From positions 417,849 to 481,848 of the forward strand of contig CAWVVV010000002.1 in assembly GCA_963933835.1 (NCBI GenBank): 64,000 nt of DNA. Direction: 5' to 3'. This stretch comes from an uncultured Puniceicoccaceae bacterium. Lineage in GTDB: Bacteria > Verrucomicrobiota > Verrucomicrobiia > Opitutales > Oceanipulchritudinaceae. The position numbers and the translations under genes are program-made. Below are positions 19,367 to 22,967 of this stretch, in pieces (the first letter of the stretch is position 1; every line of letters starts with the position of its first letter). The notes under the pieces are model-generated. The model had not been told where the DNA came from and made no database searches. It saw only the letters and a list, made by a program, of their open reading frames with translations.

Positions 19367-20758
19367 ATGACTACAGACCTTTCCCAGATGACTTTCCCCA
19401 AAGCGAGCACTCCACACCCGAAGGAGACGCGTATCATCCTAGCGAATTCAGAGCGCGAAGATTTTGACGCTTCGATCGACTGTTACACACGCAATGGCGG
19501 ATACGATGTGCTGAAGAAAGCACTCTCGATGAAACCGGAGGAGGTTCACCAAGAAGTCCTCGATAGTGGAATTCGTGGCCGCGGCGGTGCTGGCTTTCCT
19601 GCAGGGATGAAATGGAAGTTTCTCGATCGCAAAAGTGGTAAGCCGATCTACCTGATCTGCAACGCGGACGAGTCGGAGCCGGGGACCTTTAAGGACCGCC
19701 AAATCATGCACAAAGATCCGCATCAGCTGATCGAAGGCATGATGATCACGGCCTACGCAATCAACGCTGCCCAAGCCTTTATCTATATCCGCGAAGAGAT
19801 GCCTTATGGCGCCCAGATTCTCGATCAAGCGATCGCAGAGGCGAAGGCCGTTGGTTTTGTCGGCGATAATATCGGCGGAAGCGGATACTCCTGTGAGCTG
19901 ATTGTTCACCGTGGTGCTGCAGCATACATCTGTGGTGAAGAAACAGGGCTCATTGAGTCGCTCGAAGGCAAGCGCGCCTATCCGCGAATCAAGCCTCCTT
20001 ATTTTCCAGCAGCCCTCGGCCTCTACATGTGCCCGACAATCGTGAACAACGTGGAGACGCTTTGCCATGTGAAGCATATTGTTGAGCGAGGCGGTCGGGC
20101 GTATTCAGAAATTGGGACGCCGAATAATTCTGGAACACGTATCTGGTGCCTCAGTGGCCACGTCATGCGCCCCGGTTACTACGAACTCGAAACGGGTAAA
20201 GTAACCTACGGTGAGCTGATCAATGATATCGGAGGAGGCTTGCGTTCAGGACGCACCCTACAGGCGGTCATTCCAGGCGGCTCGAGTTCAAAGATCTGGC
20301 GCGCCGGTGAACGCTTTAAAGGCAAGCTCCGAAATGGAACAGAGTTTGACTGGGCGATCGATGATATCCCGCTCGATTTTGACAGCCCGGCTGCAGCTGG
20401 GTCGATGAGTGGCTCCGGTGCCGTCATCGTGATCGACGATAGCGCCGACATCGTCGAGGTGCTCGCGAACATCAATGAGTTCTACGCACACGAAAGTTGC
20501 GGCCAATGCACGCCGTGTCGTGAAGGTAGCCTCTGGATGAAAAAAATCACTGCGCGTATGGCCAGAGGTGGCGCCCGACCAGAAGATGCTCAGCTTCTCG
20601 CCTCGATCGGTGATCAAATCGCAGGGAAGACAATCTGTGCCCACGGTGAAGCCTGCGCATGGCCGACCCAGAGCTTTGTTAATAAGTTTGAAGATAAATT
20701 CGTCGCGAAGGCTGAAGACAAGAGCCCTGAGCCAAAGAGTGAATTCCAAATGGTGTAG
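19367..20758 (+). CDS. nuoF: NADH-quinone oxidoreductase subunit F
   Basis: SGIRGRGGAGFP, NADESEPGTFKDR, YICGEETGL, ESCGQCTPCREG. Confidence 0.97.
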   Translation: MTTDLSQMTFPKASTPHPKETRIILANSEREDFDASIDCYTRNGGYDVLKKALSMKPEEVHQEVLDSGIRGRGGAGFPAGMKWKFLDRKSGKPIYLICNADESEPGTFKDRQIMHKDPHQLIEGMMITAYAINAAQAFIYIREEMPYGAQILDQAIAEAKAVGFVGDNIGGSGYSCELIVHRGAAAYICGEETGLIESLEGKRAYPRIKPPYFPAALGLYMCPTIVNNVETLCHVKHIVERGGRAYSEIGTPNNSGTRIWCLSGHVMRPGYYELETGKVTYGELINDIGGGLRSGRTLQAVIPGGSSSKIWRAGERFKGKLRNGTEFDWAIDDIPLDFDSPAAAGSMSGSGAVIVIDDSADIVEVLANINEFYAHESCGQCTPCREGSLWMKKITARMARGGARPEDAQLLASIGDQIAGKTICAHGEACAWPTQSFVNKFEDKFVAKAEDKSPEPKSEFQMV

Positions 20759-20764
20759 TAGGAA

Positions 20765-21184
20765 ATGGAGACACAAGTAATTAACCACGAAGTTCACGAA
20801 GAGCACGAAGGCTATACTTTCGAGCCTCTCTCGAAACGTATCATTTCCGCAGCGATCGAGGTTCATCGCGAGTTAGGTCCAGGTCTTCTTGAATCCGCAT
20901 ACATGGCGTGTTTCGCGCATGAATTGTCTTTAATGGACATTGAGGCTGAGTTAGGGGTCCCTCTGCCTGTTCAATACAAAGGCTTGGCGGTCCCGACTAG
21001 CTATCGAATGGATTTGGTAATTGATAATGAAATTTTAGTGGAGTTAAAGAGCGTTGCTTCACTCGAGCCTATTCACGAAGCACAGGTTTTAACTTACCTT
21101 AAGCTCTCTGGTTTGAAAAAGGCTCTGCTGATTAACTTTAATGTTCCATTGTTAAAAGACGGCATCCGCCGATTTGTCCGATGA
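20765..21184 (+). CDS. GxxExxY protein (PD-(D/E)XK nuclease-like) inserted in the nuo operon
   Basis: 'AIEVHRELGPGLLESAY', 'YRMDLVID..VELKSV', 'AQVLTYLKLSG...LLINF'. Confidence 0.92.
   Translation: METQVINHEVHEEHEGYTFEPLSKRIISAAIEVHRELGPGLLESAYMACFAHELSLMDIEAELGVPLPVQYKGLAVPTSYRMDLVIDNEILVELKSVASLEPIHEAQVLTYLKLSGLKKALLINFNVPLLKDGIRRFVR
20783..20810 (+). repeat. Left arm: three CACGAAG units at 9-bp period
   Basis: aac-CACGAAG-tt-CACGAAG-ag-CACGAAG inside the 5' end of the GxxExxY ORF (encodes HEVHEEHE). Confidence 0.85.
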
Positions 21185-21206
21185 AACGATTCAATTCTAG
21201 TTTTTT

Positions 21207-21234
21207 CTTCGTTAACTTCGTGATCTTCGTGTTA
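21207..21234 (-). repeat. Right arm: inverted copy of the CACGAAG triplet
   Basis: CTTCGTT-aa-CTTCGTG-at-CTTCGTG-tta, 22 nt after the GxxExxY stop. Confidence 0.85.
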
Positions 21235-21266
21235 GAAAACCACGTTATATTCGAGGACATTATTTA

Positions 21267-22967
21267 ATGAGTAACTCGATCGAAGATTTGATTAGGATTA
21301 ACCTGAACGGTAAGGACGTTGAAGTTCCTAACCGAATGAATCTCGTCGATGCGGCTGAGATGCATGGCGTCGAAATTCCGCACTATTGCTACCACTCTAA
21401 GCTCAGTGTGGCGGGTAATTGCCGCATGTGTCTGATTGAGATGGGCACGCCGGGTCGTGACCGTGCGACAGGTGAGGCAATGCTCAATGAGGATGGCTCG
21501 CCGAAGATCATGTGGGTGCCAAAGCCGGTTATCGCCTGTGCGACGAATGTATCGCCGGGGATGCATGTGAACACGGAGTCCGAAACGGTGAAGGGATGCC
21601 GCGAGGGCGTAATGGAATTTCTCCTCGTAAACCACCCGCTGGATTGCCCGATTTGTGACCAGGCAGGGGAGTGCCGCCTGCAGGAATTTTCAACCGACTA
21701 TGGCCGTGGCTACTCACGCTTCATCGAAGAGAAGAACGTAAAGCCCAAGCGCACTCGTATCGGCCCGCGCGTCATGTTGGATGATGAGCGCTGTATTTTG
21801 TGCTCCCGTTGCGTTCGCTTTGCAGACGAAATCATTGAAGATCATGTCCTCGGCTTTATCGACCGTGGCAGCTACTCGACGCTGACGACCTTCCCAGGTA
21901 AAGAGCTCAATAGTAATTACTCTCTAAATACTGTGGACATCTGCCCGGTGGGTGCGCTCACGAGCACTGACTTCCGCTTTAAAATGCGAGTTTGGTTCCT
22001 CCGGGAAACGCCTTCGATTGATGCCGAGTCGAGTGTTGGTTGCAACACCATGGTCGGCAGCCGCGAGGGTAAGATTTACCGAATCACTCCGCAACAGAAC
22101 GACGAAGTAAACGACACTTGGATGCCTGACTCAGGTCGCGAGCTCTATAAGAAGGTAGAGTCTAAGGATCGTCTCGATAGCTACGCGATCGAAGGTCGTC
22201 CAGTATCGGCAGATGAGGCTCTGGCAAAAGCAGCCGAACTCTTGCAAGGTGGTAAGGTCGCGATCGTCGGCAGCGCTACGCTTGCGCTCGAAGAACAATT
22301 TGTCCTCACCAAAATTCGTGAGACACTCGGTGCTGAGATCCCGTCGTATTGGGTTTCTCATTACGCAGATGGTGATGGGAAGCTCTTAAGTGCAGACCGC
22401 ACGCCGAACCTTCGCGGCGGTCTCTTGAGCGGGTTTACCGATGCACTTCCGGTAGCAGAGCTCAGCGAGCTCGGAGCGAAAATCGATTCCGGCGAAATCA
22501 CGACGATCTTGTCTGTCGGTGAAAAAATTTGTGCTGCAGGCATCAGTGATGAACAGCTGAAAAAGGCGAAGGTCATTTACATTGGTGAAGAGCTTTGCTC
22601 GACGAGTCAGTTCGCAGAGGTCGAGATCCCACTTCTCACCGTGTTTGAAAAATCAGGCACCTTCGTTAATCAACAGTTTCGAGTGCAAAAGTTCACTCAG
22701 GCGATTCCAGGGCCATCGAGTGTGATCTTTGGACTCTCTAATTTTACCAAGTTGCACCACCTCCTCGACGCCGATTCGCCGTATGCGCCAAGTCCGGCCG
22801 CGATCTGGCAACACATGGCACAGGCGGTGCCCGAATTTGCCGACCTGACCTTCAACGGAATCCCGGCGACGGGCGTTGTTGTTTCCGATCATCGATTCGC
22901 GGCGCTTGAATTCGTTGATGGCCCGTCGATTCACTTTCAGCCCAAAAACGCTGCCGTTGAGGCCTAA
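21267..22967 (+). CDS. nuoG: NADH-quinone oxidoreductase subunit G (short form)
   Basis: IPHYCYH..L...GNCRMC, NHPLDCPICDQAGEC, RCILCSRCVRF, DICPVGAL. Confidence 0.96.
   Translation: MSNSIEDLIRINLNGKDVEVPNRMNLVDAAEMHGVEIPHYCYHSKLSVAGNCRMCLIEMGTPGRDRATGEAMLNEDGSPKIMWVPKPVIACATNVSPGMHVNTESETVKGCREGVMEFLLVNHPLDCPICDQAGECRLQEFSTDYGRGYSRFIEEKNVKPKRTRIGPRVMLDDERCILCSRCVRFADEIIEDHVLGFIDRGSYSTLTTFPGKELNSNYSLNTVDICPVGALTSTDFRFKMRVWFLRETPSIDAESSVGCNTMVGSREGKIYRITPQQNDEVNDTWMPDSGRELYKKVESKDRLDSYAIEGRPVSADEALAKAAELLQGGKVAIVGSATLALEEQFVLTKIRETLGAEIPSYWVSHYADGDGKLLSADRTPNLRGGLLSGFTDALPVAELSELGAKIDSGEITTILSVGEKICAAGISDEQLKKAKVIYIGEELCSTSQFAEVEIPLLTVFEKSGTFVNQQFRVQKFTQAIPGPSSVIFGLSNFTKLHHLLDADSPYAPSPAAIWQHMAQAVPEFADLTFNGIPATGVVVSDHRFAALEFVDGPSIHFQPKNAAVEA

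Follow-up and report, generated by a model that had tools for sequence, protein, structure and literature searches.

The spacer between nuoF and nuoG in a 64,000-nucleotide stretch of the genome of an uncultured Puniceicoccaceae bacterium (contig CAWVVV010000002.1; the whole stretch is referred to here as the window, and plain positions are those within it) contains a gene for a 139-aa GxxExxY protein enclosed by two inverted arms made of iterated heptamers. Gene and arms together are a real, recurrent unit, in which the heptamer type is specific to each cassette. The reading that we favor, and that we believe about as much as we doubt, is that positions 20781-21235 are one copy of a compact and widespread selfish cassette, whose arms would be iterated DNA recognition sites for its own nuclease. 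The features of the locus are the following:

20765-21184, plus strand: GxxExxY / PDDEXK_3 gene, 139 aa, with matches to PF13366 and TIGR04256
20781-20810, plus strand: left (5') arm, TTAACC overlapping three CACGAAG heptamers with a 9-bp period and spacers TT and AG
20882-20902, plus strand: codons of the GxxExxY motif (G40 L L E43 S A Y46)
21011-21049, plus strand: codons of the putative catalytic D83 ... E93-L-K95 (D..ExK motif)
21207-21235, minus strand: right (3') arm, inverted copy with three heptamers, one of them AACGAAG
19367-20758, plus strand: nuoF, the upstream host gene, with Complex1_51K, SLBB_2 and NADH_4Fe-4S domains
21267-22967, plus strand: nuoG, the downstream host gene, with NuoG domains

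Read directly, the left arm is CACGAAG-tt-CACGAAG-ag-CACGAAG (20786-20810) and the right arm CTTCGTT-aa-CTTCGTG-at-CTTCGTG (21207-21231), with a single mismatch within the heptamers and spacers that do not match. An inverted-repeat search of the window gave the same pair (25 nt, 84% complementary, 396 nt apart), in agreement with an earlier description made from the DNA letters alone (the sequence-only reading), which had reported inverted CACGAAG triplets at a 9-bp period with one mismatch. The two-heptamer pattern CACGAAGNNCACGAAG, allowing up to one mismatch, has four matches in the 64-kb window, all of them within the two arms, while shuffled versions of the window contain 0.01 on average (100 shuffles, none reaching four). 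The left outer end carries a terminal motif, TTAACC (20781-20786), that is shortened to TAAC at the right end, and the presence of this motif at the outer ends delimits a unit of ~455 nt (~20781-21235). The outer end of the left arm lies 22 nt from the nuoF stop codon, and the right arm begins, again, 22 nt past the stop codon of the GxxExxY gene. All three genes, nuoF, GxxExxY and nuoG, are co-directional on the plus strand. The left arm falls within the first 16 codons of the open reading frame (ORF) and reads HEVHEEHE if the start is the ATG at 20765, the sole ATG, GTG or TTG start in that frame. A GC content of 0.40-0.45 in the insert versus 0.53-0.57 in the flanks, together with the ORFs and the domain matches, bears out the description of a 139-aa AT-rich gene between nuoF and nuoG. 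The ribosome-binding-like GAGGA that stands 9 nt ahead of the nuoG ATG is outside the cassette. No sigma-70-like promoter was found in 20500-21400, and the one weak terminator-like hairpin in that interval is within chance expectation. A solitary CACGAAG inside the ORF (21074-21080) corresponds to codons of the conserved PIHEAQ and carries no weight, since lone heptamers number 292 in the genome. Just beyond the right arm there is also an AACCACG in forward orientation (21240-21246), equivalent to the terminal motif plus the start of a heptamer, which could be a relic of another arm or, being only a 7-mer, chance.

The same arrangement recurs across the family. A scan for homologues with one genome per species gave 80 loci at 49-64% identity (that is, close relatives only), 77 of which were used after dropping three for short flanks. 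They come from ~13 phyla (Acidobacteriota, Verrucomicrobiota, Planctomycetota, Chloroflexota, Gemmatimonadota, Pseudomonadota, Cyanobacteriota and six more, one of them archaeal), and cultured carriers of the family include Bacteroides finegoldii, Baaleninema simplex PCC 7105 and Thioalkalivibrio. In B. finegoldii, for example, a gene with the same arms is located between radA and a FAD-dependent protein gene, in a record that annotates only the gene. An inverted repeat scoring at least 15 flanks the gene at 64 of the 77 loci (median score 21.5), a feature that the sequence-only reading had proposed to look for at GxxExxY loci; the corresponding controls gave 0/77 for shuffled flanks, 18/77 for mispaired flanks of different loci and 13/77 for direct repeats. 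The family arm consensus is TTCACC-CACRGAG-N1-2-CACRGAG-N1-2-CACRGAG, of which CACGAAG is the local variant, and the general layout is of 2-4 iterated heptamers with a terminal TT(C/A)ACC, a layout that the window cassette fits. The period is 8 in 60 cases and 9 in 45. The 3' arm starts 1-13 nt past the stop codon in 32 of 57 loci, and the start codon is mostly 1-30 nt past the last heptamer or, as in the window, just ahead of the 5' arm. Throughout, the cassette ends are defined solely by where the similarity between arms stops.

A way to learn what has been preserved in these arms is to compare the two arms of each locus, position by position. Such mismatches were counted in 61 loci, after excluding 4 of the 65 scoring at least 15 whose best pair was in reverse orientation. 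Heptamers differ at 52 of 1197 positions (4%, half of them at position 4), spacers at 61 of 190 (32%) and the outer flank at 47 of 512, so the earlier remark that heptamers are kept while spacers vary extends to the whole family. Over 59 loci, heptamers are identical in 65% of the pairs within an arm, in 68% of those across the two arms and in 29% of those between loci. In the 40 loci with a mixed arm, mirror positions are identical in 74 of 116 cases, against 61.9 +/- 2.9 when the order is shuffled (0/5000 shuffles reach 74), and hence the arms are true mirror copies. The arm differences, taken over 65 loci and 2005 positions, comprise 47 that are wobble-compatible (G-U in the sense RNA), 55 A-C transitions and 71 transversions. 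We have rejected the 9-bp period as a reading-frame effect: a period of 8 is as common, the arm of a congeneric cassette (G001, see below) is in another frame and the arm-encoded residues 1-17 are predicted to be disordered, all of which indicates that the arms are conserved as nucleic acid and not as peptide. The GGAG-containing heptamers as a fixed Shine-Dalgarno were rejected as well, due to the broad distance from the last heptamer to the start (1 to >100 nt).

The genome of the window (G000; 1.94 Mb in 10 contigs, 97% complete) has seven PF13366 genes, and all seven are surrounded by inverted periodic arms. Their heptamers are CACGGAG/CACAGAG, CACGAAG (twice), CACGAAT, CGCGAAT, CACGGAT and CGCAGAT, and within each cassette the left and right arms agree. 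With five or six heptamer words in one cell, a single host factor cannot read all of them. All seven cassettes are co-directional with the upstream gene and occupy seven unrelated junctions. With the window copy the paralogues share 30-53% identity, and there are no near-identical copies in the genome. One of them, also with CACGAAG arms (C1:551245-551677, L004), follows the stop codon of a gene and precedes a GC-rich hairpin with a T run behind it, apparently the terminator of this upstream gene. Two genes of another family, PF05635 (the "23S rRNA IVS protein", a four-helix bundle; IVS, intervening sequence), are also found between inverted periodic arms in this genome (C1:432573-432869, L118, and C2:34605-34910, L119), although with units unlike the GxxExxY arms found here, TGATGAAT-like in one case and TAATCC/GGATTA runs in the other.

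Arms without a gene are another conspicuous component of these genomes. In that of the window there are 18 arrays of at least three strict heptamers, versus 0-2 in five shuffled genomes, and only two of the 18 adjoin a gene; gene-less arm pairs, for which the sequence-only reading had proposed to scan the genome, are present. Dense gene-less mosaics of several heptamer types, partly nested, are found at C1:88500-88900, C2:46100-46350, C4:75200-76200 and C4:175900-176400. Several of the 18 arrays belong to those of C1 and C4. We have extended the count to 31 relatives, which are kin to each other and in which gene-flanking arms contribute to the arm counts. PF13366 was found in 19 of them, with 0-8 copies per genome over the whole set, and no copy was found in the other 12. 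The strict three-heptamer pattern appears in 20 of the 31: among the 19 that have the gene it is present in 17, and among the other 12 in 3. The reversed pattern used as control gave a single hit over all 31 genomes. Arm arrays exceed twice the gene count in nine genomes, the extreme being G019 with 118 arrays and three genes. In seven gene-less units of G019 each arm is built of three CACGGAT heptamers, a loop of ~36 nt is conserved (flipped in 2/7) and there is an outer module on one side. These units lie in either orientation and their flanks are unrelated, which is what a dispersed family would show. A second recurrent motif, TTACAGAGCCYAAG, is located just outside many arms; in G019 it takes the form TAGGnTGTnTTTTGAA and is present on one side only.

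The protein itself belongs without difficulty to a known family. It matches PF13366 (PDDEXK_3) with 134.7 bits (cut-off 22, E 2.6e-39) and TIGR04256 (GxxExxY) with 138.3 bits (cut-off 35, E 1.4e-40), and it is a PF13366 protein only, not S23p / PF05635. This is a very large family, represented in bacteria and archaea. In an alignment of 41 sequences G40, Y46 and K95 are invariant and E43, D83 and E93 are conserved in at least 90%; the D..ExK motif, which the sequence-only reading had called intact, is indeed complete (D83, E93 and K95). The AF2 model shows a compact PD-(D/E)XK domain at residues 20-139 (mean pLDDT 88.1), with residues 1-17, those encoded by the arm, predicted as disordered (pLDDT <50). 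Structural matches by VIA-align were Cas4 SSO0001 (Z 7.8, the best), BpuSI, SwaI and BglII (Z 7.4-7.5) and Hjc (Z 6.2), while Foldseek against the PDB gave nothing at E <=0.001 (best Cas4 SSO0001, 1.3e-3). Judging from the predicted model, these matches are only the generic ones of the PD-(D/E)XK fold, with no specific relative standing out. A sequence search of the PDB gave no match at E <=1, and PADLOC and PHROGs models recognized 0 families in the 139-aa protein at E <=0.01. No relative of the protein was found in viral contigs, 0 of 50,697 phage records matched and the 7 matches among 72,556 plasmid records were mostly to very large replicons, so that no obvious vehicle was found in viral, phage and plasmid records.

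The history of the window cassette can be followed by comparing the same junction in relatives. We have used the 22 relatives with both nuoF and nuoG in the locus, taking the distance from the last aligned residue of nuoF to the first aligned residue of nuoG. The junction measures at most 98 nt in 17 of them, ~200 nt in two and ~700 nt in two, and holds a GxxExxY gene in only one, the same-genus G001; none was found there in other genera. The two ~700-nt junctions (G027, L026, and G016, L035) contain unrelated small ORFs, which shows that the nuoF-nuoG spacer repeatedly tolerates insertions. The junction of G019 (L033, ~216 nt) has a gene-less inverted pair of ~8-nt GATAA-type units, an arm pair of another repeat family. 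The GxxExxY proteins of G001 and the window are 62% identical, while nuoF and nuoG are at 83-85%, and in the G001 cassette all six heptamers are CACAGAG, with the same 9-bp period. A tree with these two proteins as a clade is not rejected (p-AU 0.88); constrained in this way, it gains 39.5 log-likelihood units over the quick free tree. Common descent of the two cassettes at this junction is thus likely, and it would imply a concerted change of the same two bases in five or six heptamers, something that requires either repeat homogenization or co-evolution with a reader encoded by the cassette. The arrival of the cassette in the nuoF-nuoG spacer, where it is sense-oriented, dates from the origin of the genus or from earlier.

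Other sites tell a comparable story of fixed places and changing occupants. Of the eight copies in G001, the flanks allowed five to be located on the window genome. Reciprocal-best copies are found at two of the five, nuoF-nuoG itself and C3:137222 (68% identity, with CGCGAAT in both genomes). At C2:161833 the window genome holds a non-orthologous cassette, only 36% identical to the G001 copy at that site, which is in turn 61% identical to another paralogue of the window genome and has the CGCAGAT-type arms of that paralogue. Within C1:431466-433958 the window genome has a PF05635 gene where G001 (L128, G001:C462), between the same flanking genes, has a GxxExxY gene, so that different cargo families occupy one site. 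At one mapped site the copy of G001 has decayed and contains a stop codon, and there is no copy in the window genome. Farther away, G019 and G029, which belong to different families, have a site and an arm type in common. Taken together, these comparisons indicate that sites persist while their contents turn over. In the public metagenome contigs of this organism (runs X7 and X8) we have observed breaks near both arms, at window positions 20720-20830 and 21187-21260, a pattern to be expected of repeats that break up short-read assemblies.

How a gene of this kind and its arms could work together can be outlined as follows. The nuclease would recognize, at the DNA level, the iterated heptamers at both ends of its own cassette, each paralogue reading its own heptamer variant, and would cut in the arms or close to them, the probable substrate being the extruded hairpin or single-stranded DNA. 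The unit, and gene-less arm pairs too, would then be copied or moved by the repair or recombination of the host into operon spacers, often ones in which arms are already present. Transcription of the cassette would be part of that of the nuo operon, whose RNA may also be shaped by the paired arms. Binding, cleavage and movement by the GxxExxY nuclease are our inference. A reading by the cassette's own nuclease is favored because heptamers outlast spacers, words are alike within an arm and there is no wobble bias, while pairing alone predicts the opposite on all three counts, and because one host factor cannot read all the words present in one cell. For the arms as iterated binding sites, as the sequence-only reading put it, the comparative data fit best (heptamers are conserved ~7 times better than spacers, uniform and cassette-specific), the binding itself being what these patterns suggest. 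The selfish nature is supported by the patchiness: the copy number among relatives, the short junction in most of the 22 and a protein tree that mixes phyla (30 label changes versus a minimum of 12). A vertically conserved gene with host-congruent phylogeny and armless homologues is not what we found, given the arms at most of the 77 loci, the mixed-phylum tree and the empty junctions. The mobile unit of the sequence-only reading therefore stands as far as its recurrence (7/7 in this genome and 64/77 elsewhere), the empty junction in other genera, the gene-less pairs and the tree are concerned; its mobility remains conjectural, with no target duplication found, no near-identical copies in this genome and no empty allele in the four DNA runs.

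More tentatively, and with more doubt than conviction, we would go one step further and propose a new class of prokaryotic mobile element, in which a ~120-aa PD-(D/E)XK nuclease, with no transposase, would read the cassette-specific heptamer iterons of its own inverted arms (probably as a hairpin) and spread itself and gene-less hairpins into operon spacers via host repair. Arms and specificity would co-evolve, and the 23S IVS protein genes would be a parallel cargo. Such a co-evolution of arms and nuclease, if true, would explain the wholesale CACAGAG-to-CACGAAG switch at nuoF-nuoG.

Several observations weigh against a selfish cassette with its own recognition sites. The commonest gene-less family of G019 (CACGGAT) is unmatched by its three cassettes (CGCAAAG, CGCTAAT and CGCAGAT), in G014 (80% complete) no gene was found in spite of 15 arm arrays, and G006 and G010 have genes and no strict arm array. 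The two reciprocal-best sites out of five point to long residence rather than frequent movement, and, along these lines, the 30-53% identity among paralogues shows nothing of recent movement in the window genome. In four DNA runs (X5-X8) there is no contig in which nuoF is connected to nuoG without the cassette; at two contig joints in these runs 888-1085 nt are exchanged for other sequence and the sides are short (24-29 nt), for which reason these joints come from other organisms. Target-site duplication gave no signal, with flank repeats of at least 3 nt in 15 of 55 loci versus 19% in the mismatched-flank control. A 120-aa nuclease without evident joining activity would depend on host functions for its movement. 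Linkage alone may be behind the correspondence of arm type and protein clade, and spacers still match at 68% of positions, so there is some pairing or copying constraint on the whole arm. Finally, no biochemical or expression data on the GxxExxY family were found in the searchable literature.

The first alternative to be weighed, a live rival that is at the same time compatible with a selfish cassette, is an RNA element similar to the IVS of 23S rRNA. According to it the arms pair into a ~25-bp stem in the nuo transcript, RNase III cuts, the cassette RNA is released or destroyed and the nuoF and nuoG segments are separated, by which the insert is tolerated in an essential operon; the main reason for the arms would be this stem. 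We consider this possible, if rather unlikely. The arms do pair in both the minimum free energy and the centroid folds of 20760-21266 (-142.8 kcal/mol, z -2.18, 0/100 shuffles as low), the geometry equals that of the RNase III-cut Coxiella 23S rRNA IVS (PMC4990558), and the genome contains an RNase III gene. Among RNA runs, none was found that covers 20400-21700. The co-direction of all seven cassettes with the upstream gene, the lack of a promoter-like site in 20500-21400, the PF05635 genes within inverted periodic arms and the mirror-position identity above the order-shuffled expectation would all be in keeping with it. The looping out of ~400 nt raised by the sequence-only reading is therefore physically possible, but the substitutions give it no support: wobble-compatible changes are not in excess, and the high spacer mismatch breaks the stem every 7 bp. 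Pairing alone also leaves unexplained why the heptamers of one arm have the same word and why word and TTCACC are conserved across phyla, and the gene-less hairpins track the nuclease gene across genomes, something that an RNase III substrate would not need.

A free-standing gene similar to those of homing endonucleases, which would cut cassette-free junctions and be copied in by recombinational repair, the arms being accessory (e.g., for expression control or immunity of the filled allele), seems to us improbable. The intergenic, sense-oriented position in conserved operons is what such a gene would show, as is the presence at the same junction in two congeners and not in other genera. At two further sites G000 and G001 have different cassettes in the same place, the lack of target duplication fits repair-mediated copying and the catalytic triad is conserved. 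On the other hand, seven cassettes in seven unrelated junctions leave no common target evident, neither iterated inverted arms nor dispersed gene-less hairpins with unrelated flanks are predicted, and the fold matches are of the generic kind, with the homing endonuclease domain 3r3p appearing among the Foldseek matches at E 0.1.

We give equally little credit to a long-domesticated operon module, vertically inherited, with a host function for the nuclease and arms acting as RNA stabilizer, processing signal or translational mask of its own start. Such a module would account for the shared site in two congeners, where common origin is not rejected, for the site and arm type shared by G019 and G029 and for the age of the paralogues, as well as for the tight spacing of the 3' arm behind the stop codon, the clustering of starts just after or before the 5' arm and the start codon 1-30 nt past a GGAG-containing last heptamer in most relatives. 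It is at odds with the 0-8 copies among close relatives (with none found in 12/31), the mixed phyla on the tree, the GC of the insert below that of the host and the swapping of contents at fixed sites, where a GxxExxY gene is exchanged for a non-orthologous one or for a PF05635 gene; the variable distance from last heptamer to start also makes GGAG no fixed ribosome site. Neighbor orientation in foreign loci, assessed by a crude open-frame test, was undecided in 53-54 of 71 loci. RAYT-dependent REP elements were rejected since no Y1/RAYT transposase gene (PF01797) was found in the 97%-complete genome.

A survey of the superfamily from 2012 lists the function of PDDEXK_3 (PF13366) as unknown and reports multiple transfers. 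In the full-text literature, which leaves subscription-only papers uncovered, we found no function for GxxExxY (a name that two papers mention only in passing), PDDEXK_3, PF13366 or TIGR04256, and no published description of the package of arms and gene; on nuclease-bearing hairpin cassettes there was only an unrelated review. The repeat-armed GxxExxY cassette is thus apparently undescribed. The arms provide the PF13366/TIGR04256 family with a concrete, testable candidate substrate, and the bracket that they form explains a class of intergenic repeats at which metagenome assemblies break up. The cassettes also link the long-unexplained ORF-bearing IVSs of rRNA to a wider population inside essential operons. 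If it is true that the nuclease drives mobility, this would be an enzymology not described before for mobile elements, and the cargo logic of PF05635, if true, would tie the rRNA IVSs to a much larger hidden family of operon-resident elements.

Among known systems, the 23S rRNA IVSs (Coxiella burnetii, Leptospira) resemble the cassette in several aspects. That of Coxiella has 428-444 nt, a 28-bp terminal stem and an internal ORF and is cut by RNase III (PMC4990558). The cassette is of similar size (~455 nt), both have terminal inverted repeats able to form a stem of 25-28 bp with a single small ORF filling the loop, and both are sense-oriented in an essential, conserved transcription unit, sporadic and regarded as selfish. 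The cassette is located in the spacer of an mRNA operon and the IVS in an rRNA helix, and the ORF encodes a PD-(D/E)XK protein (PF13366) in one and the four-helix-bundle S23p (PF05635) in the other. The arms of the cassette are, unlike those described for the IVS, iterated heptamers of a sequence conserved across phyla and with mismatches without wobble bias. Excision by RNase III is reported as demonstrated for the IVS, whereas for the cassette there is a predicted stem. Rfam gave no RNA family at E <=1 in 20000-22000.

Insertion sequences with terminal inverted repeats and the miniature inverted-repeat transposable elements related to them (MITEs) have a conserved terminal motif and internal sub-repeats and give rise to non-coding derivatives with two ends. 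The ends of the cassette also have inverted repeats, a terminal motif and sub-repeats, and there are non-coding two-end derivatives. In contrast to those insertion sequences, the cassette has no transposase of any known family (its only ORF is the 139-aa PD-(D/E)XK protein), no target-site duplication signal and no near-identical copies in the genome. Free-standing homing endonuclease genes, such as those of the seg/mob type in phage T4, are found between conserved genes; we know of no terminal inverted arms or gene-less derivatives in them. The cassette is like them a lone small nuclease gene between intact, co-directional and conserved genes, patchy in close relatives, and differs in its terminal inverted arms and gene-less derivatives.

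REP/REPIN elements with their RAYT (a Y1 HUH enzyme, TnpA-REP) consist of a nuclease gene between inverted short repeats and of gene-less doublets dispersed in spacers, often outnumbering the gene. Here too the arms flank a nuclease gene, gene-less pairs disperse and are tied to the gene (17/19 versus 3/12 genomes) and different repeat variants go with different gene copies. The differences are in the enzyme, a ~120-aa PD-(D/E)XK fold and not a Y1 HUH transposase, in the arms, tandem arrays of heptamers where REP is a single imperfect palindrome, and in the presence of several cassettes per genome, each with its own word. By analogy, the cassette would appear to follow the logic of the REP/RAYT system with a different enzyme fold.

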